The position numbers and the translations under genes are program-made. DNA of 64,000 nucleotides from a virus (lineage: Duplodnaviria; Caudoviricetes): the IMG/VR virus record IMGVR_UViG_3300007177_000352, positions 19,385-83,384 of that record, one strand, 5' to 3'. This document shows, piece by piece, positions 4,003 to 24,817 of the stretch (position 1 is its first letter; every line of letters starts with the position of its first letter). The notes under the pieces were generated by a model. It was given only the letters and a program-made list of their open reading frames with translations. It was not told the DNA's origin and did not search any database.

Positions 4003-4021
4003 AATCTAAGAGGAACTTATT

Positions 4022-4402: not shown

Positions 4403-4410
4403 GTGTTCAA

Positions 4411-5211: not shown

Positions 5212-5229
5212 ACTTAGAGGTACATAATT

Positions 5230-6723: not shown

Positions 6724-6818
6724 CAATTTACCCATAGCCAGTTGCATTGCTTAACATCGTAATTGCACTGGCTATATTCAATTTCTTTTACAAGCCCAAT
6801 GATGGGCGAGGTCAATTT

Positions 6819-7334: not shown

Positions 7335-7774
7335 CCCAATACCGTAACCTCTTTGAGGAGGATAATCTTATTGAGGTTGCAAACTACTGGGCGAGTGGTC
7401 AAAGTAGTAAGGATAAACCAATGGAGGAGGTTGAATCTGAAATTAACCTCCTCGTTGACCCAGAGACCGCGGCCAAGCTAGTCGAACAGTTGAAACGCGA
7501 TGCAACCCCGGACGAGTGTCATATCCTCCCTAAAAATTGGGAAACGTTTCTTTTTTGGCAACGTATATCCAGTCACTGGTTATACGGTGCCATGGGTGGT
7601 ATCTTAGGTTTAGACTGGGGGACTGTGTATGCAAAGGTGAGCCTTTATCACCAGTCCCCACCAGAGGAACTGAAAGAGCGTTACGGTTTTGAAAGAGTCA
7701 CTTTGATGATGATTGAGGGTGTGGAGGCTATGGAACGTGAGGCAAGGCGGGTGCTAAATGAAGACAATAAGTAG
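7322..7774 (+). CDS. Tail assembly chaperone T part of the GT fusion (DUF1799-like)
   Basis: -1 frame reads ...NLIEVANYWASG...; motifs 'NWETF..W......W..G.MGG..GLDW' and 'ME.EA...LN'. Confidence 0.75.
   Translation, partial: QKKVTQYRNLFEEDNLIEVANYWASGQSSKDKPMEEVESEINLLVDPETAAKLVEQLKRDATPDECHILPKNWETFLFWQRISSHWLYGAMGGILGLDWGTVYAKVSLYHQSPPEELKERYGFERVTLMMIEGVEAMEREARRVLNEDNK
7325..7331 (+). other. Programmed -1 ribosomal frameshift heptamer A AAA AAG
   Basis: GAC AAA AAA AAG TAA at the end of G. The -1 frame is open from 7322 into the 7421..7774 ORF. Confidence 0.8.
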
Positions 7775-9007: not shown

Positions 9008-9370
9008 ATGGAAGTGATTAAATACTACCTAATGGTTATATGGGTGTGGTTAAAAGGGTTGCTGAATGTGCAAAACGATAGTGACCTGCTGTGGCTACTC
9101 ATTAACAAACTGATTACCCCAGATGTGCAAGCTCTCTTGACTGAGTTGATAAAGGAGGCATCCAGAATAGACATGAGTCCTATGGAAAAGAAACGCTACG
9201 TTATGCAGAGGTTAGACACTTTGCAGTCTCAGTTGCAGACCAATATCTACCTTATGAGGGGGGAGACTTTAAGCATGGCCGTGAATATTATGGTTGAATA
9301 TTTGCAGTTACATGGGGAGTTAAAACATCATACCAAGGTGGAGGTTAAGGAGGTTAAAAATGAGATTTAA
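9008..9370 (+). CDS. Hypothetical protein with N-terminal hydrophobic segment (possibly holin-like)
   Basis: N-terminal TM followed by a helical 'EKKRYV...L' region. Coupled to the portal start. Confidence 0.4.
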   Translation: MEVIKYYLMVIWVWLKGLLNVQNDSDLLWLLINKLITPDVQALLTELIKEASRIDMSPMEKKRYVMQRLDTLQSQLQTNIYLMRGETLSMAVNIMVEYLQLHGELKHHTKVEVKEVKNEI

Positions 9371-11207
9371 AAACAGGCCACGACCTTATGCTGATATAAT
9401 GGAGGCGTATCAATTCAGTGCTCCTCTCCCTTCTGAATTGCAGATGCAACAGGCCATATTGAATTGGCAAAAGCAAACTCAAGGTGGAGGAGAGGTGAAT
9501 GGAGGTGAGGCGATTGGTATGCAAGTCACCCGAATTGAGAATGACCCTGACTTCATATATGCGCTCCCTTACGTCCTTAACCCCGACCCGGTTTTAGCAA
9601 AGCTAGGCTATTCACAGACGATTCCCGTCTATGAGTGGTTAGCAGAGGATGCACATATCGCTGGTATCATTCAAAGAATGTATGCCGGGTTAGTCAGGTT
9701 TGAAGCGCATGTGCAACCGGGTGGCTTGCGTAAAGTAGATAAACTGGCCGCGGCTTTGTGCGAAAAGATTTTAGATAGACCACCTTCTCCTAACTTCGGG
9801 TGGAATGAGTTATATTTTAAGATGTATGAGGCCGTGTTATATGGCTTTGACCTAAAAGAAATCGTATGGGATTATTCAGGCAAGTATCTTATACCAGTGG
9901 AGTTGATTGATGTACCACGCCGGCGGGTCCTATTCACGCCCTATGGATTGCCATTGATTCGCACCCGCGGGAACTTTTTAGGTGAGGCTCTTAATCCTAA
10001 TAATTACCTCCTCACTCGTCACCGACACACAGTGGATAATCCTTATGGATTTGCCGCGCTATCATCTTGTTATTGGCTAGTGAATTTCAAGAGGATGGTA
10101 ATGGAGTACTATGTAAAGTTTATAGAGAGGCATGGTAGTCCGTGGGCCATTGGGAAGTATCCTCCTGGCACTGATGCCGCGAGTATTGATACCATTCTAA
10201 ACCAGTTGGCTAGTATGCTTGATTCCGCTTGCGCGGCGGTACCGGATAACGTTGCAGTGGAATTTATGGAAGCGAAGTCGTCTGGTGAAAAGATGATTCA
10301 TAGTGGCTTCATAGATGTGGTGAATAGTGAGTTATCTAAAGCGATTCTCTCCTCCACGTTAGGAGTTGAGATTACTGACCAAGGTTCAAGAGCGGCGGCG
10401 GCGACTCATTTAGAATCCGAAGCAATGGTGACAGAGGCACATCGTAAGCTGGTCGCGGCTAGTATGAATAAACTGTTTAGGCTGGTGACGGATTTCAACT
10501 TTGGGGAGAAGGTGAGGTCTCCTTATTTTGAGTTTTATGAGGAGAGTGAAGCTAAGAAGGTAGTGGCAGAGAGTTTTGATATTATTCGTAAGTACCTCCC
10601 TATATCGTTACAGTTCGCCAGTGACCGATTGCAAGTTGAGTTGGCATCCGCAGGGGAGACAATCCTACCTGGGTATGAAGGCGAGTGGGGTGATAAACCA
10701 GAAACACCCAAGCCTAGCACCGTGATAGAGGAGGTAGCAGGTGTGGAGAGTAAAGATGAGGTGGCTGGTGACACAAAACTTGATACCGAGACTGAGTTAC
10801 CAGACGCCGAGGCACAAGTGGAAGATGGTTTAGCATTGCCCACCGACCTTGAACATCGTGACACGGTTGCCTTCTCATCCCCTCCTCCGGTTTGTGATTG
10901 TGACGAGTGTCATGGTGACTGTCATTATGATTACAGAGCCGGGACGAGGTGGGTAGATACACTATCCACTGAACCAGTGGATATAGTGAAGTTACGGTCG
11001 GCTAAGGTTTATAGTCAGTTCCTAAATAAGGACTTTCATAGAATGACTGAGATAGTTGAAAACGCATCCTCATTAGAGGAGTTACAACGTGAGTTGTTTA
11101 ACTTCTATAATGAACCGCGTCAAGAGGCAACGCAAAACCTAGCACAGGCAATGACGTTAGCTTGGTTACTAGGTTATGAAGCGGAACTCAAGCAAGCTAC
11201 TTCTTAA
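9360..11207 (+). CDS. Portal protein (Mu gp29/DUF935 family)
   Basis: Motifs 'A.LYGF...EIVW', 'F.ERHG.P..IGKYP', 'SKAIL..TL......GSRAAA.TH' and C-terminal 'ASSLEEL...L...AM.LA.L.G'. Confidence 0.9.
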   Translation: MRFKNRPRPYADIMEAYQFSAPLPSELQMQQAILNWQKQTQGGGEVNGGEAIGMQVTRIENDPDFIYALPYVLNPDPVLAKLGYSQTIPVYEWLAEDAHIAGIIQRMYAGLVRFEAHVQPGGLRKVDKLAAALCEKILDRPPSPNFGWNELYFKMYEAVLYGFDLKEIVWDYSGKYLIPVELIDVPRRRVLFTPYGLPLIRTRGNFLGEALNPNNYLLTRHRHTVDNPYGFAALSSCYWLVNFKRMVMEYYVKFIERHGSPWAIGKYPPGTDAASIDTILNQLASMLDSACAAVPDNVAVEFMEAKSSGEKMIHSGFIDVVNSELSKAILSSTLGVEITDQGSRAAAATHLESEAMVTEAHRKLVAASMNKLFRLVTDFNFGEKVRSPYFEFYEESEAKKVVAESFDIIRKYLPISLQFASDRLQVELASAGETILPGYEGEWGDKPETPKPSTVIEEVAGVESKDEVAGDTKLDTETELPDAEAQVEDGLALPTDLEHRDTVAFSSPPPVCDCDECHGDCHYDYRAGTRWVDTLSTEPVDIVKLRSAKVYSQFLNKDFHRMTEIVENASSLEELQRELFNFYNEPRQEATQNLAQAMTLAWLLGYEAELKQATS

Positions 11208-11224: not shown

Positions 11225-12040
11225 ATGGATGATACCTTTGATTGGCAAACTGTGCAATTCACGGAGGCCATTGATGTTTTGAGTGACAAGGTAAATATAC
11301 CGGTGGAGGTTAGAGGACAAGTTCTAACTGCTATGCAAGAAACAGCATTCTATGTCACTGGAATGACCCGCGCCGATGCAATCAGTGAAGTGCATGATAG
11401 TCTAAACAACATCATAGCCAATGGCGGCACGATTACGGACTTCAAAAGGGACTTCAAGGCAATCGCAGAGAAGACTGGTTTTACTCCAAAGGAGGGAGTG
11501 GCAAGGCGAGCGGAGGTGGTATTTGAAACGAATATTCATACTGCACTCAATGCCGGGTCGATGCAACGTATGAGGGAAACAGCTACCACCCGGCCGTATG
11601 CTAGTTTGATGACGGCGGGTGGGGCCAGGACATGTGGTAATTGTGCAATGATGGGGGGCGTGACGATGACCATTCAGCAATGGGATACCCGCGGCGGACC
11701 TCCTTTTCACCATCGTTGCCGCTGTGAATTAAGGAGCTTCTCTGTCACGCAAATGGAGAAGTACGGATTAAAGGAATTTAACCCTGACACTGACACAATG
11801 ACCTATCGTGGTAAGAATGGTGAGACTAGGCAAGTGAGTATGAAAGACACGTATCAATACGTTAATCCTCATACTGGTAAGACCGAGACCATCCCAGTGG
11901 GTATCTCACCCGGTTTCAATTATGCGAAGGGATTAGGTGGAACGCAACCCGTGAATGATGCCGTGCAAGCCAAAGTGAGTACATTGCCAGCGACTTTACA
12001 AACGATGGTCAAGACCGACTTTGCAAACGGTGGGCAATAA
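11225..12040 (+). CDS. Minor head protein F (Mu gpF / SPP1 gp7 family)
   Basis: Motifs 'AF.V.G', 'R.EVVFETN...A.NAG', 'PP.HHRCRC' and 'G...GFNY'. Confidence 0.88.
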   Translation: MDDTFDWQTVQFTEAIDVLSDKVNIPVEVRGQVLTAMQETAFYVTGMTRADAISEVHDSLNNIIANGGTITDFKRDFKAIAEKTGFTPKEGVARRAEVVFETNIHTALNAGSMQRMRETATTRPYASLMTAGGARTCGNCAMMGGVTMTIQQWDTRGGPPFHHRCRCELRSFSVTQMEKYGLKEFNPDTDTMTYRGKNGETRQVSMKDTYQYVNPHTGKTETIPVGISPGFNYAKGLGGTQPVNDAVQAKVSTLPATLQTMVKTDFANGGQ

Positions 12041-12041
12041 A

Positions 12042-12071
12042 AAACCGGCGGGTGATTTAACCCGCCGGTTT
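12042..12071. terminator. Bidirectional intrinsic terminator
   Basis: AAACCGGCGGG-TGATTTAA-CCCGCCGGTTT between convergent genes. Confidence 0.85.
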
Positions 12072-12074
12072 AAG

Positions 12075-12581
12075 TTAAGCATCCTTACTTGAAAGGAGTG
12101 GTTTACGTCGCCGCTCCTTTGGCCTAACCCACACCCGGGCCATTTGACTCTTAGTCTTCTTAATGGCAGGCATGGCTTCTATCTTCCTAATCCAACCTCT
12201 GTCACTTAAAATCCGTGCCAAAAGATGTTTATCCGGTCTCCTAGTTGATAGGTCATTGGGATAAAACCTTTCTAGGAATGATTGAGTGACAATCTCTTCT
12301 GGTGACTCAGTAGAGAGGTATTCATTGAGAGTCTTTTCTATCTCATTACGCCGAGGGTTAATCCATTTTGGATTAGGTTGGTTACTCCACACCCATCCTC
12401 CAGGTGAGTTATATTTGCAATAACCTCGGTCCTTGAGGACGTGTGATAGCAGGTGTTTATCACCCCGCGGTGGATTAGGGCCCAGCACGTCCTCACTGGT
12501 AAAGAGGTCAGCGGACGGGTTAATGGTAAGGTATTTTAGAAACTGAGTTTCTATATGTCTCGTCCTGATTTCGTTACTCAT
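12075..12581 (-). CDS. Hypothetical protein with two internal repeats (possible tandem winged-helix)
   Basis: DKHLLSHVLKDRGY and DKHLLARILSDRGW. Start 12581 is preferred (12605 possible). Confidence 0.5.
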   Translation of the reverse strand: MSNEIRTRHIETQFLKYLTINPSADLFTSEDVLGPNPPRGDKHLLSHVLKDRGYCKYNSPGGWVWSNQPNPKWINPRRNEIEKTLNEYLSTESPEEIVTQSFLERFYPNDLSTRRPDKHLLARILSDRGWIRKIEAMPAIKKTKSQMARVWVRPKERRRKPLLSSKDA

Positions 12582-13842
12582 TTGGCATCCTCTGTAGATA
12601 GGCATTTAAAGTAACTCGCGCAATACCTGACAGCTTTTGCATTTCAGATATGTTGCCGTTGCAAACACGATGCAATGCGGTAATGTATTGCATCATCAAT
12701 TGATTCTGGAATTGTTCCATCACGGTGGCTTTGTTCGGAATAGAGTTAAATCTTAGAACAAAACCAGTGTCAGTCGCCTCCTTATCCACCTCCACCGTCT
12801 CGGCTGGCGTAACATCCATATCGTCACTGCCATTCAGCATGTCTTTTACTAGCTTGACACTCACCTCACCCTCCTCCTTAAAAATCGCAATCCGTTGGCA
12901 AACTTGTTTCAACTCACGGACGTTGCCAGGCCAATTTAGACCGGTCAAGTAGTCCACCGCCTTTTCGCTGAATTGCACTCCCGTTAGGAACGTCTTTAGG
13001 AGTAACGGAATATCCTCTCTTCTCGTGCGCAACGAAGGCACTTCAATGGTGAATCCATTGAGTCTATAGTAAAGGTCTTCCCTGAATTTACGTTCCCTGA
13101 CTAGTTGCTTTAGTGAGTGGTGAGTCGCGCAAATAACACGCGCACTGGTATGCTGTGCCTTAGTATCGCCCACTTTGACGTAAGTACCGTTTTCAAGTAC
13201 CCTTAGCAACTGGGCCTGGCATTGCATTGGCATGTCACCCACCTCGTCCAAAAATAGGGTGCCGCCATTGGCCTCCTCAAATAACCCAATCTTATTTCTG
13301 TCTGCCCCCGTGAAGGCGCCCTTGACATGACCAAAGAGTTCTGAATTAAGAAGCTCCGCCGTGAAGCCGGCGCAGTTTATTTTCACAAACTCACCTTGAC
13401 GGCCTGACAGGCTATGCAGGTCGGTTGCAACTAATTCTTTACCTACCCCCGTTTCCCCATGAATGTACACTGGGATTGCATGGGGGGCGAGCTTCGCAAT
13501 GACCTTTTTTAAGTCGTTAATGGGCTTGGATTCGCCAATGATGCAACTGGTGATTTTTAATCCCAAAGCACGCTTGAGGTCGTCCACCGTGAATGGATTG
13601 ACCAGCGGGGTGAGGTTTTGTTGACGGTGGTAGTTTGCCTTTTCTGATGTGCAAATGATTATCCCCTCCGTCGGCGCGAAGCTCTCGTCAACTATCTGTA
13701 TATCCGCCTCCCCAGTAAACTCGTCAAATTGACGGAAGGAGGTGATGGCCATCGTGTGGTATCCCAACGATTTGGCAGCTTTTTCTAATGATACCGCTAA
13801 ATCCTGCGAAGGTGTTGCTATTAATATTGTCTGCTTTTTCAT
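12574..13842 (-). CDS. Sigma-54-dependent enhancer-binding activator (NtrC/Fis family) with degenerate receiver domain
   Basis: Walker [15 protein letters not shown] loop, Walker [26 protein letters not shown], and a Fis-type HTH ([17 protein letters not shown]). Confidence 0.93.
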
Positions 13843-13874
13843 GTGATTAATACCGCTGTTTGCTTACTCCCTAT

Positions 13875-13902
13875 AATATAGTATTATTTTTCTATTTTTC
13901 AA
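13875..13902 (-). promoter_or_regulatory. Possible sigma-70 promoter for the activator gene
   Basis: TTGAAA-16-TATATT on the minus strand. Confidence 0.4.
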
Positions 13903-13988
13903 TACACTTTAATAAAAAAAATTTTCGTATATCCACTTTATCGCCGCGGTGGTAAAAAAATACCCATACCGCGGGGGGCGGTAGGGGG

Positions 13989-14007
13989 TATTTTCACAGT
14001 GAAAATA
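13989..14007. promoter_or_regulatory. Perfect 9-1-9 palindrome (operator-like)
   Basis: TATTTTCAC-A-GTGAAAATA. Confidence 0.45.
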
Positions 14008-14030
14008 GTCTTATGCAAATTAATGAAATA

Positions 14031-14070
14031 AAAAACCGCCAGTGAGTGATAAAACTCACTGGCGGTTTTT
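14031..14070. terminator. Bidirectional intrinsic terminator
   Basis: AAAAACCGCCAGTGAGT-GATAAA-ACTCACTGGCGGTTTTT directly after the stop of 14070..14294. Confidence 0.85.
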
Positions 14071-14294
14071 TAGTTGGCCTTGATTTTTAAGGAATCTAAA
14101 ACCAATATACCCATTCCAGAAAGAATTAACATGAAACCACCGAAGGCAAAACCGAGAGTCTTTATCTCCTCATAAAAATGAGGAGGCATCGGTATCATTG
14201 ATATATATGCTAGGGTAAATAATAAAAGCCCACCTACAAGGTGTGGCATGGCCTTGCAAGCCACTTTCAATTCTTCAATCGTTTTCAATTGCAT
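14070..14294 (-). CDS. Small two-TM membrane protein
   Basis: ATG 14294 with GGAGG RBS and two hydrophobic segments. Confidence 0.55.
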   Translation of the reverse strand: MQLKTIEELKVACKAMPHLVGGLLLFTLAYISMIPMPPHFYEEIKTLGFAFGGFMLILSGMGILVLDSLKIKAN

Positions 14295-14347
14295 CTTTAA
14301 TCCTCCATTTATTAAGTGGGCGGCGAGACAGTTCGCCACCTACTTAA

Positions 14348-14376
14348 ATAGTAACGTCAAGTTTATCAAAAGTCAA
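14348..14376 (-). promoter_or_regulatory. Sigma-70 promoter
   Basis: TTGACT-17-TACTAT upstream of 14294. Confidence 0.65.
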
Positions 14377-14393
14377 TACCCTTTCAAAATTTT

Positions 14394-14915
14394 TTACACT
14401 CCTCCCCTTTCTATCCACCGACCCAATAACCAGAGTAAATCAGATAGCCTATTTAGGTATTGAATAACCAGTGGACTGACATACTCACCAGTGTCTTTTA
14501 ACGCAACCGCGGTACGTTCCACCCGACGGCATACCGTCCTAGCTACCTCCAAAAAAGCTACGTCCACTCGGTCGCCAGGTATCGCCCAATCGTACTCACC
14601 TTTATTCAACTGGTATCTACTCCGTAGGTTTTCTAAACTGGGGAGTAATTGGTTTTCAGTCAAGAGAGCGTGAATCTTGCATTTGCTATCGGGCGACGCT
14701 AGGGAGGAGCCGATGTTAAATAGCTGGCTTTGCAGTGTCTTTAAAAGAGTAAAGACCTCACTCTTAGATTTGTTGAATGCCCTTGCCACTCCTAAGTTTG
14801 CAACCAGTTCGTCTATCTCACCAGTCACCTGTATTCTTAGGTCGGCCTTTGATACACGACCGGGCCCTATAAGTCCTGTTTGCCCATTGTCACCATCACG
14901 GGTTGTTATACTCAT
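14394..14915 (-). CDS. pduO: PduO-type ATP:cob(I)alamin adenosyltransferase
   Basis: Motifs 'ITTRDGDNGQTGL', 'VSK.D.RI...G.IDEL...LG.AR', 'VARTVCRRVER' and 'YLNRLSD'. ATG 14915 with AGAGG RBS. Confidence 0.92.
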   Translation of the reverse strand: MSITTRDGDNGQTGLIGPGRVSKADLRIQVTGEIDELVANLGVARAFNKSKSEVFTLLKTLQSQLFNIGSSLASPDSKCKIHALLTENQLLPSLENLRSRYQLNKGEYDWAIPGDRVDVAFLEVARTVCRRVERTAVALKDTGEYVSPLVIQYLNRLSDLLWLLGRWIERGGV

Positions 14916-14987
14916 ACTCGCCTCTAATAAAAGAACCTTGAAATTGATAAATATGTAGTCCAAACCATCAATCATCAATCTAACCAA

Positions 14988-15020
14988 CCCCGCTAGTTTA
15001 TAAGACTAGCGGGGTTTTTT
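14988..15020 (+). terminator. Intrinsic terminator hairpin (U-tract on the + strand) between nrdJ and pduO
   Basis: CCCCGCTAGT-TTATAAG-ACTAGCGGGG-TTTTTT. Confidence 0.65.
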
Positions 15021-15027
15021 ATTGGGA

Positions 15028-17019
15028 TTAGCTAATCACACCACATACGCCGTTGTCACAATTATCGGTGCCAGCATCGCGGTCAAAGCCTTGACTAGCA
15101 CTAAACCGTTCCCAATCAATGGGCTTGAGTTTAGTTGAGTAGGCATTAAACACCGCTTCGCTGACCGGGGTCTGTGGCAAGTATAATCCGGGGGTGACAT
15201 TCTTTAGGTCAAACCGCGGCATAAACGCCGTCCCTACATACGAATCCCAATTCTTGTGTAACCAGTCGGCTATTGAAGGTATCTCGTCAGGGAGGTACGT
15301 TATTGTGCAACTGGCATTCGTGTCGCACCAATTGTCCATCATCCGCCGATAGTTTTCTAACTGGTCAAGGGCACCGTGTCTCTCCACCTCCACCCCGTCG
15401 CTATCCATTCGCCACTTGAAGTTTGGATTATCCCATTTGATAGGGAAGTTGATTAGCACGTTGCCGGGTGTCAAGGGATTGGGCTTGACCTCGTAGCCGT
15501 GCGATTCTAAGAGAGAGACCACAGGGTCGTCGCTGTTAAAATTCTGGTAGTTAAAGATGTGCTTCGCCAGTGGGTGATGTAATCCCTCACTCACCCCCGC
15601 GGCTTTGCCAGCTGTGCCATCGGGCTTGACCGTGGTGACGTAATAGGGGAGAGGTAGGCCCAACTCTCTGGCCATTGAGTGCGCACCGTGAGTCGCCGCC
15701 GCCCGAAGTCGCCGCCATTGTGCCTGCGTAAGTCCACTCTCGGCCACGCCCATGACGCCCAGACCTACCAGACGGAAGTGTTGATTGTTGCGGTGCCAAC
15801 GTTCACTTAATACACCGTCTTTTAGGTCAACGCACGTTTGTACATACGCCGCCCGTGCTAAATAGTATGCAGTGTCAAATAACTCAGTCAGGTTATGCCA
15901 TGCCGACTGGGCGACATTTAAGACCACTTGGTTGCATAACCCACCATTGACCAATGGCTGTTCACCGCACGGGTTTATCACGATAGCGTCTTCAAAACGA
16001 GACCGTAACGCTTCAGTATTGCAGATACCTGGATCACCACTGTCTCCATTTTCTAGGATTGTTTGCATAAGCTCATGGAGTGTGGATAAGCTAGGCCGCG
16101 TCTCAAATAGCACCGTGTTGTTAGTCATCCCCCGCCACATCTTGTTAACCTCCCAGAATTTACGCTTGACACTCATAAACTGGTCGATGTCACGATGGGT
16201 ATTGGATAGCATCACCAAGCCAGCGGAACGCCGACTTGATAGGGTCTCGCCGGTTAAGGCAAATATGTCCAGGAGGTCTATGACGGATAACGCACGACCT
16301 ACCCTGCTATTTAAGATATGGGCAATTATCTCAAAGGAACGCGCTATCTTTTCGTCCCCACTGGTTCGCCAGCCATAGCCGCTAGTCACCTGTCCCTTGC
16401 CGCGGATTTCTGAAAAATCTAAGACCAGTTTTTTGGCAATGACATTCCTGCCCTCATACTCATGGGCCACTAGCTTCCCCAATGCCTTCGCCCATGCCAC
16501 TGCACTGTCGCCTACCTTGATTGTCCACACGCCGTCGGTCAAGGTCTCCTCATTTTTGGGATTGCCTTTCTCAACACGATTTGAATGGATAACCTGTATC
16601 TCTGGAATTGGTTGTGCGAAGCCAAACAGGCAACCACTCTGGGGACGAATGGATACCCCGCAACCTTGCAATAGCAACCAATAGGCGTCTACCACATCAT
16701 AGACCGTCTCGTACTGCAAGCCGGCGCAATTAAATGATGTGACCTCCACCTCACGGGATTTTTCAGTGTCACCCATCCATTTGACCCGGCCTGCTAAAAA
16801 GCCCCGCCGTTCCATTTGAATTTGATGCAAGATGGTCAACTCGCGTTCCTCTGCTACGTTCAAAGGACGGCCTAGTTGACGCTCCCGTAGCCATCTTTGA
16901 TGACGGCCTACCCTATGGTAAATATCCTTCCTGGATTCCAGTTGACCATTGGGGAGTACACGGGCGTATTTTTGCAATTCCGTTACCATTGCCCTGACTT
17001 CTTTCGAGTCCATTAGCAT
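15028..17019 (-). CDS. nrdJ: Class II adenosylcobalamin-dependent ribonucleotide reductase (monomeric RTPR-like)
   Basis: Motifs 'FNCA', 'RRSAG', 'NPCGEQ', 'R.VGLG.MG', 'TTVKP.GT', 'N.SCTI' and a C-terminal CX4C redox pair (CDNGVC). Confidence 0.92.
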   Translation of the reverse strand: MLMDSKEVRAMVTELQKYARVLPNGQLESRKDIYHRVGRHQRWLRERQLGRPLNVAEERELTILHQIQMERRGFLAGRVKWMGDTEKSREVEVTSFNCAGLQYETVYDVVDAYWLLLQGCGVSIRPQSGCLFGFAQPIPEIQVIHSNRVEKGNPKNEETLTDGVWTIKVGDSAVAWAKALGKLVAHEYEGRNVIAKKLVLDFSEIRGKGQVTSGYGWRTSGDEKIARSFEIIAHILNSRVGRALSVIDLLDIFALTGETLSSRRSAGLVMLSNTHRDIDQFMSVKRKFWEVNKMWRGMTNNTVLFETRPSLSTLHELMQTILENGDSGDPGICNTEALRSRFEDAIVINPCGEQPLVNGGLCNQVVLNVAQSAWHNLTELFDTAYYLARAAYVQTCVDLKDGVLSERWHRNNQHFRLVGLGVMGVAESGLTQAQWRRLRAAATHGAHSMARELGLPLPYYVTTVKPDGTAGKAAGVSEGLHHPLAKHIFNYQNFNSDDPVVSLLESHGYEVKPNPLTPGNVLINFPIKWDNPNFKWRMDSDGVEVERHGALDQLENYRRMMDNWCDTNASCTITYLPDEIPSIADWLHKNWDSYVGTAFMPRFDLKNVTPGLYLPQTPVSEAVFNAYSTKLKPIDWERFSASQGFDRDAGTDNCDNGVCGVIS

Positions 17020-17053
17020 ATCTGTTATTTCCTCTATATAAGGAGTTGTTAAT

Positions 17054-17076
17054 AAAATTGTATAGTGATTTTACAT
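17054..17076. promoter_or_regulatory. Conserved motif TTGTATAG-NN-ATTTTA upstream of nrdJ
   Basis: 22/23 identity to 27403..27425. On the minus strand it also reads TTAACA-17-TACAAT. Confidence 0.5.
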
Positions 17077-17081
17077 CGATG

Positions 17082-17381
17082 TTAATCGCATTGCGTTTCT
17101 AGCCACGTCAATGCCCTCTCGTACAACTCGTAAGGATGCGCAGAGCCTTGATTTATGCGGTGTTTCAGACTCTGTATGAAGCGGTTAGCTAGTGCGAGAG
17201 GGTCCGCCGCCTTGGTTAGCAGTTTCTCTATATAGTTATTATTGCCAAATCCGTGCCCATAAATCTTATGCAGTTCAGAGGCAATTAGCGCGGTGGCATC
17301 GGTTGCTACATGGGCATGGGGGACATGGGTTATTGTGCCATCATGGTTCACAAAGCAGTATTGTACTCGTTTATTTTTCAC
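17082..17381 (-). CDS. Hypothetical protein
   Basis: 99-aa ORF co-oriented with nrdJ. Confidence 0.45.
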   Translation of the reverse strand: MKNKRVQYCFVNHDGTITHVPHAHVATDATALIASELHKIYGHGFGNNNYIEKLLTKAADPLALANRFIQSLKHRINQGSAHPYELYERALTWLETQCD

Positions 17382-17419
17382 GGTTAAGTTGAAAATACTT
17401 TGACGTTTAGTGGTGATTA

Positions 17420-17945
17420 TATCTGTCTAGGTCCCTTTGGCTTGTATAGGTCCAAGACTTTATGTCTATGACCTAGTTTGCGAGTCCTAGACATTGGAAA
17501 CCCGCATGGATAAAGGCTTGTAAGGTCCGTGAAGGTCAAAAGGCACTTTTCGAACTTCTTTCTATAGAAAGTTTTTTTCAAAAAAGATTGCATAATATAT
17601 TATCTTAAAAAGGACCTATACGACCTATACAGACCTTACAAGCCTTTATCCATGCGGTTCTTAGAGTGTATAGGACCTCTTTAAGAGACTCATACACGTC
17701 TAGGTCCCTCTATTTTAGAAAAAAGTCCTTAGAATAGTTGAATCTCTAATCCATTCAAAGACTTACCTAAGATTGCCATGATACTGTCTAGGTCCAGGTC
17801 CTCTACAATCCGTTTCAAAAAAGTTGTCAATTTGGGTACTTTTTCGTTTACAGAAACCTAGCAACCATGCGGTTCTTAGCATACCCATCGAGGCACTTTT
17901 CACACTGTCTAGGTCCTAGACGGCGTGAATGCCCTAGACAAGATT
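17420..17945. repeat. Non-coding repeat-rich element A (origin-like); homologous in inverted orientation to about 59996..60232
   Basis: Many GTATAGGTC / TCTAGGTCC boxes, a perfect 26-bp inverted repeat (17502-17527 / 17632-17657), and CCATGCGGTTCTTAG present twice. Confidence 0.75.
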
Positions 17946-18020
17946 GACGGCCTTTTAAGTTTTTCAGTCGCCAGTCACTAGTCCTACCTATACAATTTTT
18001 TTAAAATTTTTCTGAAACTA

Positions 18021-18049
18021 TTGACAATTGATTTGGTATCAAATATACT
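18021..18049 (+). promoter_or_regulatory. Near-consensus sigma-70 promoter for dnaN
   Basis: TTGACA-17-TATACT. Confidence 0.85.
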
Positions 18050-18089
18050 ATCAATAATAGTAAAAATTACCTCACCTATAAACCATCTT

Positions 18090-19253
18090 ATGAATTTAGA
18101 ATTAACTAAAAAAGAGCTTCTTTCCCCTCTAAAGACCGCAGCTTCCGTTATAGAAGACCGCCGGGCCGGCATGACAGTACTCGGTAATATTCTTTTGCAG
18201 GCCGACGGCAAACAACTAAACTTAACGGGCGGTGATGGCGACATTGAGGTGACTTGCAACCTCCCTATTGAGACCAGCGCCACCTTTGCCATCACTGTTC
18301 CTAAAAAGCTATTAGACATTACACGGTCGGTGAATGACGGCGGTGACTTGCATATTTCAGATAAAGACGATAAGCTAATTATAAAGTCTGGCAAAAGCCG
18401 CTTTACCTTGGCCACCTTGCCTGCCGACAATTACCCAGCCAGCCCGGTGTTAGAGGTCAATAAACAACTGACTCTCCCTCAATCGGAATTGAAGTCACTG
18501 ATAAAACAATGTGCATTTTGCATAGCCTCCAACGACATACGCTATTATCTAAACGGCGCGTTATTAGAAATAAATGATGGCGAAGCATACATGGTTGCCA
18601 CCGACGGCCACCGTATGGCAGTGACACCATTGGAATTGTTAGTCAGTCCAGTGGCGACCGCTGTGCCTACGAAAAAAACTAAGAAGTCTGCGGCTACCGA
18701 GGCCACCGATTCGGATAATGCTAAAATCATTATCCCCCGTAAAGCCATCTATGAGTTACTCAAGTTACTCGGTGATGACGGGGACGTGCAAATAAGCTAC
18801 ACTGATAGTCACGTCCAATTTATTCTAGGGGACTCGCTTCGTTTAACGAGTAAGCTAATTGACGGGCAGTTCCCCGACTGGCGAAGCGTAATTCCCGCCA
18901 ATGCAACTAACATTGCCCGTGTGTCTAAGGCCGACCTCTATTCAGCCATAGGCCGTGTAACTCTACTCTCTAACGAGAAATACAAAGGAGTGCGACTGAC
19001 ACTCTCTAAAGACCTCTTGACGGTTAATGCGAAAAATCCTAATCAAGAGGAGGCGACGGAAGAATTAGAGGTGATATATGAAGGCGAGCCTCTTGAAATT
19101 GGCTTTAACGGCGCCTATCTACTAGAATCAATAGCGGCTGTGAATACCGCTGATGTGCAACTGGCATTCACAGATAGTAACTCCTCTGTGGTGATTACTC
19201 AAAATGAAGACGAGGCAGAAGGCAAGTGGATTATTATGCCAATGAGGTTGTAG
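18090..19253 (+). CDS. dnaN: DNA polymerase III beta sliding clamp
   Basis: Motifs 'VLGNILL', 'SG.SRF.L.TLP...YP', 'D.RYYLNG.L', 'ATDGHR', 'IIPRKA', 'SKLIDG.FPD', 'IGFNG.YL' and 'IIMPMRL'. ATG 18090 lies downstream of the promoter. Confidence 0.96.
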   Translation: MNLELTKKELLSPLKTAASVIEDRRAGMTVLGNILLQADGKQLNLTGGDGDIEVTCNLPIETSATFAITVPKKLLDITRSVNDGGDLHISDKDDKLIIKSGKSRFTLATLPADNYPASPVLEVNKQLTLPQSELKSLIKQCAFCIASNDIRYYLNGALLEINDGEAYMVATDGHRMAVTPLELLVSPVATAVPTKKTKKSAATEATDSDNAKIIIPRKAIYELLKLLGDDGDVQISYTDSHVQFILGDSLRLTSKLIDGQFPDWRSVIPANATNIARVSKADLYSAIGRVTLLSNEKYKGVRLTLSKDLLTVNAKNPNQEEATEELEVIYEGEPLEIGFNGAYLLESIAAVNTADVQLAFTDSNSSVVITQNEDEAEGKWIIMPMRL

Positions 19254-19362
19254 AGTAGTTAGGTTAGAATGGTGAGGATAAGTAACGGCAGGGACGCCTA
19301 ATAAACATTGATTATTTATAATGAATAATCACTATAAACATTAAGAAATTAAAGGTGAATAT

Positions 19363-19719
19363 ATGGGTAACAGAGCACAATACACTAAAGAAGAGATAAA
19401 GGAACGTATTGAAGGCACTTTTGGAATAGTTGCGCAATTAGCTAAGAAACTAGACGTATCCTGTGTCACGGTCTATAATTACCTAAACCAATATCCTGAG
19501 TTAAGGGACGACTTAAAACAAGAGCGTGAACGTACTAAAGATTATGTAGAAATAGAGTTCATTCGCCTGATAAAAGAAGGTAATACCAAAGCCATTTTAC
19601 AGGCAGCTAAGACGCTATTAAAGGACCGTGGCTATGGCTACACTTTTGAACAGGCCAGTACGCAACCTAACAACCACCTCTTAGACCTCCTTTCTGAAAG
19701 AATTGAACAAGGTAGCTAG
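19363..19719 (+). CDS. HTH protein, probable terminase small subunit
   Basis: N-terminal HTH (LAKKLDVSCVTVYNY), 'EGN..AI....KT..K.RGY' motif, and first gene of the operon ending in terL. Confidence 0.55.
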   Translation: MGNRAQYTKEEIKERIEGTFGIVAQLAKKLDVSCVTVYNYLNQYPELRDDLKQERERTKDYVEIEFIRLIKEGNTKAILQAAKTLLKDRGYGYTFEQASTQPNNHLLDLLSERIEQGS

Positions 19720-20088: not shown

Positions 20089-20517
20089 AACCTCTGGACG
20101 CCGGAGGATTTTTCATTGGCAAATGATGAGGATAAGATGACAGGTGAAGAAGACGACCAATCCAATTACAGTCGTTCAGTCAAGTCACCCACCTATGTAG
20201 TCACTGGTGAAAAACCAAAATTAACTGACCTCTTTGATAACTCAGTAACGACGCGACTGATTAGCAACATCAATCAATCCAACCTCCCAGAGGACGAAAA
20301 GGAGTTTCTAAGAATAGCCGCGCAACGCCATACGGTATTGCATTTTGGAAACATAGCCGAGTATTATGCCCATGCCAACGAGGAGCTACAGACACTTATG
20401 GAGGATAATGCACTCGTCATTATTGACTTTAATAAAGCGATTGAGTTAGGTCTCGTTAAGATAACTAAGCAGATAGCCGAGATAACTAAAGAGGAATATG
20501 GTGATGACGACGTATAA
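19726..20517 (+). CDS. ParB-like N-terminal domain fused to a C-terminal domain of the type that accompanies T-even-like glucosyltransferases (adaptor A)
   Basis: 'GRSILVDK.G..IAGNKT' and 'ELA.ADNR..EL...WD'; C-terminal 'FL..AA.RH....F..IA.YYAHA..E.Q..ME..ALVIIDF.KAI'. Confidence 0.7.
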   Translation: MPKYNQDKRNANRGTERGRELLKQSLSRLGPGRSILVDKHGTAIAGNKTLAEATSQGIPTVEVETDGKTLVVVKRTDLDLDTDIKARELAFADNRVAELDLDWDTEVLKTDLEVLDTDFLNNLWTPEDFSLANDEDKMTGEEDDQSNYSRSVKSPTYVVTGEKPKLTDLFDNSVTTRLISNINQSNLPEDEKEFLRIAAQRHTVLHFGNIAEYYAHANEELQTLMEDNALVIIDFNKAIELGLVKITKQIAEITKEEYGDDDV

Positions 20518-21376
20518 ATTCGCGGTGTTTATTCTCGTCCACGGACGACCTGATAGAGTGGTTACTTACCACACCTTAAAGAAGCAAGGCTACACTGGTG
20601 ACATTTACTTGATTGCCGATAATGAGGATAAAACCGTCCCGCAGTATAAGGAAAAATTTGGGGAGGATAAAATCATTATCTTTGATAAGTTAGCGATGGC
20701 GCAACGGATTGATACTGGTGATAACTCTCAAGAAAGACGAGCCGCCGTCTTCGCACGGAATGCCTGCTTTGATATTGCAAGAAACTTAGGGATTGATTAT
20801 TTTCTTCAATTGGATGATGACTATAATGGATTTTATTATACTTTTACAGGCGACCTAAAGTATCATCAAAAACCGGTTAAATATAGCCTTGATAGGTTAT
20901 TCCAATCAGTTTTGGAATATTACATTAGTATAGATGCACTTACTATTGCTTTTGCCCAAGGTGGTGATTTAATCGGAGGTAAAAACAATAACATGATGGG
21001 TGCTATTAAAATTAAGCGTAAAGCTATGAATACTTTCTTTTGTAGTATTCATCGTCCTTTTGAGTTCACCATGCGCGTCAATGATGATGTTAATGCTTAT
21101 ATCCGTTATGGCAACCGTGGTAAGCTAATATTTACTCTTTATAATTTAATTATAAAACAACCAGCCACCCAAAAAGTTAAAGGTGGCATGACGGAACTTT
21201 ACCAAAATGAGGGGACTTATCCAAAATCTTTCTCTACCGTAATGATTGCGCCATCTTGTACCAAAATTGCAATGATGGGTGATAAGCATCCTCGTATTCA
21301 CCATCAAATCAACTGGGGTAACGCCGTCCCCTGCATTCTTGACGAAAAGTACAGAAAACGAAGCCACCATGCCTAA
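20498..21376 (+). CDS. GT-A fold DNA glycosyltransferase (beta-glucosyl-HMC-alpha-glucosyltransferase / GREB1-like)
   Basis: Motifs 'FIL.HGR', 'YL..D.ED....Y', 'ARN', 'LDDDY', 'K.MN.F', 'N.DVN.Y' and 'GG.T..Y...GTY.KSF'. Confidence 0.82.
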   Translation: MVMTTYKFAVFILVHGRPDRVVTYHTLKKQGYTGDIYLIADNEDKTVPQYKEKFGEDKIIIFDKLAMAQRIDTGDNSQERRAAVFARNACFDIARNLGIDYFLQLDDDYNGFYYTFTGDLKYHQKPVKYSLDRLFQSVLEYYISIDALTIAFAQGGDLIGGKNNNMMGAIKIKRKAMNTFFCSIHRPFEFTMRVNDDVNAYIRYGNRGKLIFTLYNLIIKQPATQKVKGGMTELYQNEGTYPKSFSTVMIAPSCTKIAMMGDKHPRIHHQINWGNAVPCILDEKYRKRSHHA

Positions 21377-21731: not shown

Positions 21732-21977
21732 GAAATGTTTAAGATTGATGTTATTGGTGATACAACATCAAATTTACCTACAGCAGACTTTACCAATTGG
21801 AAAGCTATACAACAACAGTCTTTAACAAAAAGAGTTTTAATTGGTGAGATTGAATTTGGAATAAGTGAAGAGCAGTATAACTCTTTCCTAGAGTTACTTG
21901 AAGTTAAACTAAAGACAATTAATAGCCAAAGGTTGGCAGCACAAGAGGTATTTAATGATGCGTTTTGCAGTGATTGA
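21369..21977 (+). CDS. ParB-like N-terminal domain with unrelated short C-terminus (adaptor B)
   Basis: First 121 aa nearly identical to 19726. ATG 21369 overlaps the glycosyltransferase end. Confidence 0.75.
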   Translation: MPKYNQDKRNANRGTERGRELLKQSLSRLGPGRSILVDKHGTAIAGNKTLAEATSQGIPTVEVETDGKTLVVVKRTDLDLETDIKARELAFADNRVAELDLDWDTEVLKTDLEVLDTDFLNEMFKIDVIGDTTSNLPTADFTNWKAIQQQSLTKRVLIGEIEFGISEEQYNSFLELLEVKLKTINSQRLAAQEVFNDAFCSD

Positions 21978-23253
21978 TGCACTAGGTAAAGATATTGACC
22001 CTCGATTTGATGGCATGGCTGTTAAATATTTAAATTGGGAACTTAATAGATTAGGTGCTAATGTTGTTAAACTACCGCAATTAGCAGATATTATATTAAT
22101 CAGTACAGTATCTGCTGGTGAGTGGCATGTTGTTCCATCGTGTATAAAAAAGCATAGTATTGATAGACTGAGGCAAAAAATCATACTGGGTGGTCAAGCA
22201 TCATTATCTCCAAAAGTTTTTGAAGATTATGTTGATATTATATGTGTTGGCGAAGGTCGAGTTTTTTTAGAGACATTGGTGAAGCAAGGGTTTGATACAG
22301 CAAGAAATTTACCAAATAGTTGGGTTAAGGGTGATACAAGAGAGGTAATTCCTGATTATAATTTTCCTTATGATATTCCTCCAATTAAATGTATGGATGG
22401 TTTAACTAGGATATTTGCATCTCGCGGGTGCAGGAAAAAATGTTTATTTTGTCAAGTAGGCTGGGAACGTGAATATTCTGAAAATAGTTTTGAAAACGTA
22501 TCATCTTTAGATAAAGAGTTATCTATGGTTGGTCATCGTGTCAATTATGTAAGCAATGATTTATGTGGTTTAAGCTATTTTGATAAAATAAATCATTACC
22601 GGCACTTTTCAGGAAGTTTTAATCATCTTAAAACCGTTATTGAAACTATTGGGATGAAAAAAATAGTTCAAAAACTAGGTACTATGTATGGTTCAATTCG
22701 TATTGGTGTTGAATCAGTAAGCGAACGATTGAGGAGGTTTATAGGCAAACCGATTAATAGTAGAGACTTATTAGATATTACATGCAACTTCCTTAATGCC
22801 GGTATTAAGTTTAAATGGTTTATGATTTGTGGATTACCTGGTGAGACTGATGATGATTATGAAGAATTAAAAATGTATATTAGTTACATAAAAAAGAACG
22901 TAAATAAAGGTATGTTACACATAAGTTTTACATCTTTTTTGCCCAATTCACCCTGTCCTCTTTGCATTCCACCATTAGAAGACTCTTATCAAGATAGAGT
23001 AAATAGTTTCTATGATTGGTTTTTTGATGGTGCCGGCTATACTAGAAAGGTAAGAATATTAAAAGGATGTGAACCAAAATCCAGATTATTACAGTCAATA
23101 GGATATATGGGTTGTTCTGAAGATGATTTGCGTAGAGGTTGGCTATATGATGACCCACCTAACTGGCGTGTTAGGTATACCTACCGTGACAAAATACGCC
23201 GTGCCTATAACGTTTATGCCAAAAAAGTTGGACTACCTATAGGGAAAGATTAA
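21955..23253 (+). CDS. Radical SAM protein with probable N-terminal cobalamin-binding domain
   Basis: CxxxCxxC (SRGCRKKCLFC), 'GG...P.....D....GEG', 'GVES.SERLR..I.KPI' and 'M.CGLPGET'. Confidence 0.85.
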   Translation: MMRFAVIDALGKDIDPRFDGMAVKYLNWELNRLGANVVKLPQLADIILISTVSAGEWHVVPSCIKKHSIDRLRQKIILGGQASLSPKVFEDYVDIICVGEGRVFLETLVKQGFDTARNLPNSWVKGDTREVIPDYNFPYDIPPIKCMDGLTRIFASRGCRKKCLFCQVGWEREYSENSFENVSSLDKELSMVGHRVNYVSNDLCGLSYFDKINHYRHFSGSFNHLKTVIETIGMKKIVQKLGTMYGSIRIGVESVSERLRRFIGKPINSRDLLDITCNFLNAGIKFKWFMICGLPGETDDDYEELKMYISYIKKNVNKGMLHISFTSFLPNSPCPLCIPPLEDSYQDRVNSFYDWFFDGAGYTRKVRILKGCEPKSRLLQSIGYMGCSEDDLRRGWLYDDPPNWRVRYTYRDKIRRAYNVYAKKVGLPIGKD

Positions 23254-23783
23254 TGCCCAAACTAACCGATTACACACCTGACCATCATAATGCGAACCTT
23301 GGTACCGACAGGGGCCGTAAAGAGCTTGCTAAATCTGTTAAACAACTTGGTTTAGGTCGGTCAATCCTGACGGATAAAGACGGACGTATTATCGCTGGCA
23401 ACAAGACTTATGAAGCGGCGGTTCAAGAGGGTATTTCCAAAGTAGTGGAAGTGGAGACCGACGGTGATACCCTAGTTGTCGTCAAGCGAAATGACCTGGA
23501 TTTAAATGAGCACATCAAAGCGCGTGTCCTTGCCCATGCAGACAATAAGATTGGACAGGATAACTTGAACTTTGACTTAGCTATCGTCAAGGCCGACCTA
23601 GAATTACTGCAAAGCGATTTTCTGGACGAGCTTTGGACGCCAGATGACCTTGGGGAATTATTTGAGGAGGATAATGTCAATCATATTGACCCGCAGCAAA
23701 TGCACACCAAAGAAATTAATCCAAATGAATTTGAATTTGAATGCCGTTGCCCAAAGTGTGGCTTTGAATTTAATCCCAAATGA
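23253..23783 (+). CDS. ParB-like N-terminal domain with C-terminal CPKC knuckle (adaptor C)
   Basis: Diverged paralog of adaptors A and B ('NAN.GT.RGR', 'GRSIL.DK.G..IAGNKT'). TAATG coupling to the radical SAM gene. Confidence 0.75.
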   Translation: MPKLTDYTPDHHNANLGTDRGRKELAKSVKQLGLGRSILTDKDGRIIAGNKTYEAAVQEGISKVVEVETDGDTLVVVKRNDLDLNEHIKARVLAHADNKIGQDNLNFDLAIVKADLELLQSDFLDELWTPDDLGELFEEDNVNHIDPQQMHTKEINPNEFEFECRCPKCGFEFNPK

Positions 23784-24817
23784 ACAAACATGCTTGGTTT
23801 CTCACTGACTTAAAAACTATACCATCCAACGGTTTAAAAGTGATGTCAACTTTTGCTTGTGGTGGCGGGTCATCTATGGGTTATAAATTAGCTGGGTGTG
23901 AGGTGATAGCGGCTAACGATATTGATGCAGAAATGGCTTATCATTACAAATTAAATCTACATCCACAATATTATTTCTTATGCCCAATTCGTGACTTATT
24001 GACCAAACAATTACCTAAAGAATTGTTTAACTTAGATATATTAGACGGCAGTCCACCTTGTTCAACTTTTAGCATGTCTGGTAAACGAGAAAAAGTATGG
24101 GGGAAAAATAAACGCTTTAGAGAAGGTCAAGCTAAACAGGTTTTATCTGATTTATTTTTTGACTATCTTGACTTAGCTGAATATCTAAAACCTAAAGTAG
24201 TTATAGCAGAAAACGTCAAAGGACTGATTTTGGGCAATGCCAAAGGTTATGCAAAGTTGATAATGATGCGGTTTAAAGAAATAGGCTATAAACCTCAGTT
24301 ATTTTTAGTCAATGCGGCGGATTGCGGTGTTCCTCAAACTAGAGAAAGGGTCTTTTTTTGCGCATTAAGAAATGATATTAATATGCCCCCCTTAGAACTA
24401 TCTCCTACTTGTAAATGGGTAAGCGTTGGTGAAGCAACTAGCGATTTACAGGTTTTGACCGATAATGAAATACGCAATACACAAGCAAGTCCAATGGATT
24501 TAAAATATTGGAAACTCGTAAAAAAAGGACAAGTTTATAATACATTTATAAAAAAACATGAAAAAAGAATATGTGGCTTTAATTATTGTAAATTAGATGA
24601 TGCAAAACCAAGCCGCACAATGTCGGCACATCCCTCCTCACTTAAACATTGGTCAACTTGTCGTAATTTAACTTACCGTGAATGGAAAAGAGTAGGTTCT
24701 TTTCCAGATGATTATCAAGCCAAAAATGATAATATTGGTAAATATATGATAGGTATGTCCGTACCGCCATTAATGACCAAAGCGGTGGCTGATGCTGTCA
24801 TAAAACAGTGGCTTTGA
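23780..24817 (+). CDS. DNA (cytosine-5)-methyltransferase
   Basis: Motif I FACGGG, motif IV GSPPC, motif VI ENV, motif VIII PQ.RER, motif X IGMSVPP. Confidence 0.93.
   Translation: MNKHAWFLTDLKTIPSNGLKVMSTFACGGGSSMGYKLAGCEVIAANDIDAEMAYHYKLNLHPQYYFLCPIRDLLTKQLPKELFNLDILDGSPPCSTFSMSGKREKVWGKNKRFREGQAKQVLSDLFFDYLDLAEYLKPKVVIAENVKGLILGNAKGYAKLIMMRFKEIGYKPQLFLVNAADCGVPQTRERVFFCALRNDINMPPLELSPTCKWVSVGEATSDLQVLTDNEIRNTQASPMDLKYWKLVKKGQVYNTFIKKHEKRICGFNYCKLDDAKPSRTMSAHPSSLKHWSTCRNLTYREWKRVGSFPDDYQAKNDNIGKYMIGMSVPPLMTKAVADAVIKQWL

Follow-up and report, generated by a model that had tools for sequence, protein, structure and literature searches.

A predicted PduO-type cobalamin adenosyltransferase encoded beside a B12-dependent ribonucleotide reductase in a tailed phage

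The DNA analysed in this work, which we call the window, is a stretch of 64,000 nucleotides from a virus of the Caudoviricetes. Its source is an 83,384-bp IMG/VR virus contig (IMGVR_UViG_3300007177_000352) that CheckV rates as 91% complete, and the window covers bases 19385-83384 of this record. Our subject is two neighbouring genes on its minus strand. One is predicted to encode a PduO-type ATP:cob(I)alamin adenosyltransferase, and the other a class II monomeric ribonucleoside-triphosphate reductase (RTPR), a type of ribonucleotide reductase (RNR) that uses adenosylcobalamin (AdoCbl) as its cofactor (see Table 1). An initial annotation of the window described the two genes as adjacent and co-oriented, which is correct. 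It went on to propose that the phage redirects host cobalamin into its own oxygen-independent synthesis of deoxyribonucleoside triphosphates (dNTPs). Comparative evidence now speaks strongly for that proposal, although the activities of both enzymes are still predictions. A functional link between the RNR and PduO genes is well supported by the comparisons of related sequences that we describe below.

Table 1. Features of the window discussed in the text (positions are those of the window)
Feature	Position	Strand	Basis or remark
Predicted PduO-type ATP:cob(I)alamin adenosyltransferase, 173 amino acids from ATG 14915	14394..14915	-	PF01923, TIGR00636
Predicted class II monomeric ribonucleoside-triphosphate reductase (RTPR type), 663 amino acids from ATG	15028..17019	-	TIGR02505, phrog_367, 1L1L alignment
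Intercistronic GC-rich hairpin, 12-14-pair stem	14986..15016	-	between RNR stop and PduO start
Sigma-70-like promoter match, TTAACA-17-TACAAT, 10/12	17057..17085	-	consensus only; directly upstream of RNR start
Hydrophobic small open reading frame after PduO, 74 amino acids	14070..14294	-	translation; variable
Intrinsic terminator, end of RNR-PduO-small frame unit	14029..14072	-	19-pair stem, then T-run on minus strand
Open reading frame directly upstream of RNR, 99 amino acids	17082..17381	-	kept beside RNR in relative G001
Radical SAM enzyme, N-terminal Rossmann-like (B12-binding-like) domain	21955..23253	+	CX3CX2C, PF04055, AlphaFold2 model; 4.9 kb from RNR start
Major capsid	1514-2629		profile scans
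Mu-type portal	9360-11207		profile scans
MuF	11225-12040		profile scans
Large terminase	24858-26204		profile scans

The reductase and adenosyltransferase genes

The reductase scores 366 bits against the equivalog model TIGR02505 (cut-off 340.05), over residues 10-660, and just 48.9 bits against TIGR02504, the model of the dimeric NrdJ enzymes, which has a cut-off of 399.95. It also matches the ribonucleotide reductase family phrog_367 (1.4e-115). The sole solved relative is the RTPR of Lactobacillus leichmannii (1L1L), likewise a member of the TIGR02505 family, which is found with an E-value of 4.6e-28 by the single sequence and of 5.5e-64 by a profile of 20 relatives. In the profile alignment C98, N349, C351, E353, C362, C654 and C659 of the phage protein correspond to C119, N406, C408, E410, C419, C731 and C736 of 1L1L. 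These are the seven catalytic residues, i.e. the thiyl-radical cysteine with its Asn and Glu, the redox cysteine pair and the C-terminal cysteine pair, and they are invariant in 20 sequences. The insertion domain of B12-dependent RNRs (PF21995), a precomputed label on several RTPR relatives, scores 24.1 bits in the window protein, under its cut-off of 27. We predict that the gene encodes an AdoCbl-dependent monomeric class II RTPR that reduces ribonucleoside triphosphates (NTPs). The RTPRs of roseophage SIO1, the cobaviruses, Sinorhizobium phages and actinobacteriophages belong to the same family.

The smaller gene lies in an open frame at 14394-14987 (minus strand) that would encode 197 residues if started at TTG 14987, with the leading 24 residues falling outside the domain. 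A second candidate, ATG 14915, has the sequence GAGG five bases upstream and yields a protein of 173 residues that starts MSITTRDGDNGQT. The nearest relatives have the same beginning and are 171-174 residues long. Because of this putative ribosome-binding site (RBS) and the lengths of the relatives, we favour ATG 14915 over TTG 14987 as the probable true start. The protein matches the whole of PF01923 (Cob_adeno_trans; E-value 6e-43, 147.3 bits with a cut-off of 24, profile positions 1-171 of 171), and it scores 127.8 bits against TIGR00636 (PduO_Nterm), where the cut-off is 108.45. With the equivalog-type scores of both proteins above their cut-offs and the catalytic residues kept, the gene names given in the initial annotation can be retained.

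Relatives of the adenosyltransferase in the Protein Data Bank comprise 37 PduO/ATR entries, the best of them being the M. tuberculosis enzyme (3.8e-22), to which the segments ITTRDGDNGQTGL and ARTVCRRVER of the window protein align. A fold family and motifs are common to the phage protein and the enzymes of M. tuberculosis (6WGS/2G2D), L. reuteri (3CI1) and human (MMAB, 2IDX). The N-terminal TRxGDxGxTGL stretch, annotated as ATP-binding, and the ARTVCRRxER helix are conserved among the relatives. In an alignment of 16 sequences, the window protein and 15 relatives, T5, G8, D9, G11, T13, R126, R130, R131 and E133 are invariant, and 48 invariant columns are common to the phage and bacterial enzymes. 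We take the N-terminal stretch to bind ATP and the Arg/Glu-rich helix, R-x-x-x-R-R-x-E-R, to hold the catalytic and disease-linked residues. PduO-type enzymes are homotrimers with their active sites at the subunit interfaces. The gene product is accordingly named here a PduO-type cob(I)alamin adenosyltransferase, with catalysis predicted.

Conservation and origins of the pair

As the initial annotation had suggested, we surveyed viral databases for the co-occurrence of pduO and class II RNR genes. IMG/VR was searched by an alignment-based scan with two peptide patterns per query, so that the counts describe samples and are not a census; scans with a single PduO or RNR protein had given no usable locus, and alignments were required. 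The scan found 22 loci with a PduO relative, and an RTPR is immediately adjacent in four of them (L003, L004, L005 and L018). The first of these loci belongs to a phage of 81 kb, 92% complete, in synteny with the window phage. Its RNR is 46%, its PduO protein 52% and its head genes 64-86% identical to their counterparts. L004 and L005 are near-identical fragments, with an RNR 62% and a PduO protein 43% identical to those of the window. In every related contig found, the RNR-PduO pair is kept.

The pairing is absent from other viral RTPR loci that we examined. Viral stretches with RTPR relatives number at least 587 in IMG/VR, and among the best 80 of these, other than the paired loci, none has a PduO gene within up to 5 kb. 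For 50 of these 80 loci we checked the whole virus record, choosing the longer records, 23 of which are at least 90% complete. PF01923 was found in none of the 50, nor did any of them exceed the cut-off of PF02572, the family of CobA-type transferases (a single hit reached 14.1 bits). Bacterial-like metagenome contigs gave a similar picture: a convincing RTPR was found in none of 80 loci that host the nearest PduO proteins (36-48% identity; 45 of these loci have 2.5 kb or more of sequence to one side), the best candidate being one hit of 17.6 bits.

Phages in GenBank were also searched. RTPR relatives occur in 501 of 50,697 records, and tblastn finds a PduO relative in 15 of the same 50,697, 13 of them unannotated. 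Four of the PduO records were inspected and none of the four carries an RTPR. At least two of these four 'phage' records look like bacterial DNA. One record, 'Acinetobacter phage MD-2021a' (CAKLQH020000002.1, L196, 254 kb), has a PduO-like yvqK gene amid btuB, trpB/trpC, baeSR and a fatty acid desaturase, and looks mislabelled; an inspected Listeria 'phage' contig has a long-form PduO frame of 337 residues. None of the four viral PduO proteins tested against PHROG matched a family there.

A second group of phage-like contigs with a PduO gene was seen in IMG/VR (L012, L016, L019, L020 and L022, in records whose lengths range from about 7.8 to 112 kb). Here the gene has a fixed context, with an N6/N4 methylase, a DUF5856 protein and a protein of 468-474 residues that ends just before PduO, followed by DUF192 and NUDIX genes. 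Neither Pfam nor PHROG has a match to the 468-474-residue protein, and all its atlas look-alikes are hypothetical proteins of viruses. A B12-dependent partner that has so far escaped recognition is one possible identity.

Trees of the two proteins agree with one another. One eight-member clade unites the PduO proteins of L003, L005, the window and the five database sequences nearest to it, P0002-P0006 (support 98 in the Shimodaira-Hasegawa-like approximate likelihood ratio test, SH-aLRT), and seven of the eight have support 99/99 in a separate, careful tree. All eight are intact, 171-184 residues long and 43-97% identical to the window protein, and the clade nests among bacterial PduO proteins. 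The RTPRs that go with them fall in a clade of 11 rows, with a support of 100, apart from the RTPRs common in 40-kb phages; the window RTPR is about 40-45% identical to that common type and, unlike it, comes with its own adenosyltransferase. Both trees fit a single capture of a PduO gene beside the RNR, followed by joint descent.

The fourth paired locus, L018, is of a different kind. Its RNR (3905-7420 on the minus strand of record G011) is an RTPR-like protein of 1,171 residues with an N-terminal ATP-cone and an intein with HNH/NUMOD3 motifs, and it is divergently adjacent to the PduO gene. This RNR is no more than 31% identical to any other in the tree, and the PduO protein groups with those from metagenome-assembled genomes of giant viruses (SH-aLRT 96). 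The record has a capsid match of the nucleocytoplasmic large DNA virus (NCLDV) type, at 47.8 bits with a cut-off of 34.8, and no terminase match. By sequence comparison, PduO and RTPR were brought together here a second time and independently, in a contig whose capsid gene is of the NCLDV type.

Other RTPR phages, as judged by the 50 records above, manage without a transferase, so that the bulk supply of coenzyme by the host is usually enough. What, then, does the phage enzyme add? One answer is that PduO is chiefly a dedicated repair enzyme and escort, which returns cob(II)alamin from failed RTPR turnovers to the adenosyl form and passes AdoCbl straight to the reductase, not via the host pool. 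The tight, conserved adjacency and the co-diversification of the two proteins fit a physical partnership, and PduO-type enzymes do deliver their cofactor to clients, as human MMAB does to methylmalonyl-CoA mutase. Yet adjacency is equally expected if the transferase simply supplies the coenzyme, contact between the two proteins is conjecture, and the idea differs from simple supply in degree and not in kind. A complex prediction for the RNR with one PduO chain gave a score of 0.00 and, being run without controls, says nothing either way. We regard a dedicated escort as unlikely, and simple supply of coenzyme to the RTPR is the reading that we carry forward.

Transcription unit and genomic surroundings

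A spacer of 112 nucleotides separates the RNR stop codon from the PduO start, and consensus and terminator scans found no minus-strand promoter or terminator match in this interval. The only promoter-like sequence that we list for the pair is the one directly upstream of the RNR, and the two genes would be co-transcribed leftward. The spacer holds a hairpin. The T-run that satisfies the terminator scan lies on the plus strand only; on the minus strand the downstream T-content is slightly under the rule. The region 14900-15040 has a folding z-score of -2.74. The hairpin probably lowers the expression of PduO relative to the RNR, or else stabilises the RNR message.

The RNR-PduO stretch is present in 19 DNA runs of 8 studies, and these samples, together with the relatives, illustrate how the flanks of the pair vary. 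Small indels are seen in the hairpin region in other samples, and in one contig of run X8 positions 14926-15025 are exchanged for 39 other letters that likewise contain an inverted repeat. The hairpin position in L003, within a spacer of 64 nucleotides, is occupied by another inverted repeat, which is AT-rich and unrelated, and in L005 the spacer is just 14 nucleotides and includes an RBS. Downstream, a 20-kb contig of run X1 has 14078-14373 exchanged for 350 unrelated letters while RNR and PduO are intact. The small hydrophobic frame that follows PduO has a promoter-like site of its own (14376-14348). Because it varies between samples, this frame is probably not part of the module and would lie outside the conserved RNR-PduO unit.

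On the other side of the pair, the frame directly upstream of the RNR is 43% identical to the stretch immediately upstream of the RNR in G001, a relative of the window phage. It has no match in Pfam, NCBIfam or PHROG and no CxxC motif. Just downstream of the unit, at 12574-13842 on the minus strand, lies a gene for a sigma-54 enhancer-binding ATPase (PF00158, 3.7e-64; phrog_7998). As a regulator of the RNR operon this activator was considered and rejected: the window has no canonical -24/-12 sigma-54 promoter, and the single match with one mismatch, where 2.06 are expected by chance, lies inside a giant open reading frame (ORF), so we do not tie the activator to the operon.

That the element belongs to a phage, as was first proposed, is borne out by the capsid, Mu-type portal, MuF, terminase and tail genes that fill the window and by the classification of the contig as viral in IMG/VR. 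Further phage genes here include neck genes, RecT/exonuclease, a single-stranded DNA-binding protein and a Dda-like helicase, and the 19.4 kb of the record that precede the window also encode a D5-type primase-helicase, an FtsK-like ATPase and a lysozyme. No integrase was seen in the record, and a megablast search with 12000-19500 found no match among GenBank phages. No Rfam family, the cobalamin riboswitch included, reached its gathering score in the window, with chance-level hairpin matches as the sole result for 13800-18100. More than a quarter of the phage is taken up by a single open frame of 7,676 residues (36891-59921, minus strand), whose counterpart in G001 is 58% identical over 5,746 aligned residues.

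Neighbouring genes with a possible role in DNA modification differ between the relatives. A TET-associated glycosyltransferase and a C5 cytosine methylase (20498-21376 and 23780-24817) have no counterpart in G001 at E<=1e-5, whereas the ParB-like genes and a radical S-adenosylmethionine (SAM) gene are kept there; it follows that the DNA-modification cassettes are not the same in the two phages. The initial annotation had described this radical SAM gene as B12-binding, at 5 kb from the pair, and had seen in it a possible second use of redirected cobalamin, in DNA modification. The gene is indeed found at about that distance. Its product has a CX3CX2C motif (C159/C163/C166) that is invariant in 40 sequences and it matches PF04055 (1.2e-12), with weak matches, far under the cut-offs, to the NCBIfam families of B12-dependent radical SAM enzymes. 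The AlphaFold2 model has a predicted local distance difference test (pLDDT) score of 95.1. Its best Foldseek match is MgmA (9ccb, 1.7e-13), followed by TsrM, CysS, OxsB and TokK, which are cobalamin-dependent; the cobalamin-free enzymes MiaB and RimO have the same arrangement of two domains and do about as well, with a template modelling (TM) score of about 0.5. PF02310 has no match at E<=0.01 in the window protein and is present in 11 of 40 family members. Judged by the model, cobalamin binding is plausible, and this part of the claim goes no further.

Does PduO serve this enzyme, or the AdoCbl metabolism of the host in general, so that its place beside the RNR is incidental? The nearest solved structures of the radical SAM enzyme are those of cobalamin-dependent proteins and G001 holds both this gene and the pair. 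A general boost to host metabolism has a possible parallel in a wastewater virome paper, the accessible part of which names cobA (a cob(I)alamin adenosyltransferase), cobS and cobT among viral auxiliary genes (PMC11183165). That cobA is of the unrelated CobA type and is listed, in the same part of the paper, without any connection to an RNR, whereas the phage gene is PduO-type and fixed beside a reductase. Among 80 viral loci with radical SAM relatives, a PduO or RTPR gene lies within up to 10 kb in one, which is G001, the window phage's own relative. A further relative, G003 (a contig that is 21% complete), has the RNR-PduO pair and no radical SAM gene between its ParB-like gene and the terminase, and the giant-virus locus L018 pairs PduO with an RNR and has no radical SAM gene among its five large ORFs. 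In addition, B12-dependent radical SAM methylases cycle methyl-cobalamin and do not need the adenosyl form. Membership of the radical SAM gene in the RNR-PduO module is not supported by these comparisons, nor is the suggested link to DNA modification. Because the pairing with the RNR is conserved and has evolved twice, a transferase that serves the radical SAM enzyme or host metabolism at large seems to us highly improbable.

Coenzyme supply during infection

We consider it probable that the phage adenosylates a host-derived corrinoid for its own oxygen-independent RTPR, with both activities and the origin of the corrinoid deduced from the gene content. RTPR would make dNTPs from NTPs without oxygen, with AdoCbl as the source of its radical. 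PduO, made from the same leftward transcript, would take a corrinoid that the host has made or imported. Of the 71 ORFs of the record that were compared with Pfam, none matches a family for cobalamin synthesis or uptake, and the corrinoid would therefore come from the host. Flavoproteins of the host would reduce this corrinoid to the cob(I) state, since the phage itself lacks a reductase for it. PduO would then adenosylate it with ATP and so provide active coenzyme for RTPR throughout infection, and the hairpin between the genes probably holds PduO expression below that of the RNR or stabilises the RNR message. The comparative support for such a supply comes from the fact that the pair is kept in relatives, that its members form single clades, that it has a second origin and that it is absent from the other RTPR viruses and the bacterial-like PduO loci surveyed.

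Several points weigh against this reading. The enzyme activities are predictions from sequence. An aromatic residue precedes the PG motif of PduO enzymes; it is presumably Phe in those that have been studied, where we take it to displace the lower ligand and so to give the base-off, four-coordinate corrinoid. In the phage protein this residue is Trp (W110) instead, as it is in all 16 aligned sequences, and the same Trp occurs in aligned relatives that are named adenosyltransferases by their sources. The phage clade also lacks a C-terminal tail of about 17 residues that is present in the nearest bacterial relatives. The intercistronic hairpin could act as a terminator, in which case none of the promoters detected would serve PduO. 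RNA evidence consists of two 151-nucleotide contigs in the RNR (15397-15678) from one metatranscriptome run (X20), which are silent on PduO transcription and read-through. The IMG/VR counts come from the pattern-based samples described above, with the list of RTPR stretches standing at 587 or more.

A last point of this kind concerns the host, which is identified no further than by a Gammaproteobacteria-like beta-clamp (37-46% identity); a host transferase may make the phage copy redundant. The best named relatives of the beta-clamp gene product are Thiotrichales/Thioploca-like at 41-46%, and the matches in genomes are to diverse Gammaproteobacteria at 36-42% identity. These values are too low for the status of a transferase in the host to be tested.

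The altered residue and the missing tail raise a further question. Is PduO an inactive passenger, or a protein of the same fold with another function, that was taken from a bacterium? Besides these two features, the nesting of the phage clade within bacterial PduO proteins is in keeping with such an origin, as is the predicted status of the activity. On the other hand the gene has stayed intact in eight diverged clade members and retains the invariant columns of the bacterial enzymes. It also always stands beside the same partner, and the pairing arose independently in a second virus. With the pairing conserved and twice evolved, we judge a passenger very unlikely. A predicted supply of coenzyme to the RTPR is again the interpretation that we prefer.

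How does the phage pair compare with known systems? Cells place a PduO-type transferase beside an AdoCbl-dependent client, e.g. in the pdu operon or as MMAB with its mutase. The phage case differs in that it is viral and its client is an RNR, and its PduO protein is short, tail-less and has the Trp residue. Viruses, for their part, are familiar carriers of an RNR with a helper, such as the class III enzyme NrdD with its activase NrdG, or the class I enzyme NrdEF with NrdI/NrdH. As in the phage pair, the virus carries a reductase together with the protein that makes a radical-generating cofactor usable. The cofactor chemistry and the helper family are different in those systems, and the phage pair would be the class II version.

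The literature searched, with supplements and subscription journals outside its scope, held no description of a viral PduO-RNR pair. Papers on RTPR phages treat the enzyme as B12-dependent, with B12 supplied by the host, and the word 'adenosyltransferase' has no occurrence in the accessible text of two of them (PMC10547690, PMC6775973). According to the accessible parts of the same papers, a class II RNR gene is taken to mark the lifestyle of a phage and its reliance on a host that produces B12. Such a marker says something different about the host when the lineage brings, together with its reductase, the final step in making coenzyme B12.

More tentatively, and with doubts that outweigh our confidence, we raise the idea that its own transferase frees this phage lineage from the coenzyme-B12 metabolism of the host. 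RTPR would then be usable in hosts that have cobalamin and little or none of the adenosyl form, e.g. importers of B12 that use the methyl form only, and a corollary would be that PduO hands the coenzyme directly to RTPR. If this were true, the rule that RTPR phages need hosts supplying active B12 would have an escape route, one that viruses have found at least two times.

In summary, the pair adds a class II case to the viruses that carry an RNR with a cofactor helper. It is also a compact two-gene system for asking whether PduO-type enzymes load a ribonucleotide reductase. That a contig with a giant-virus capsid gene has this pairing as well points to convergent selection, acting on the supply of cofactor while viral DNA is made.

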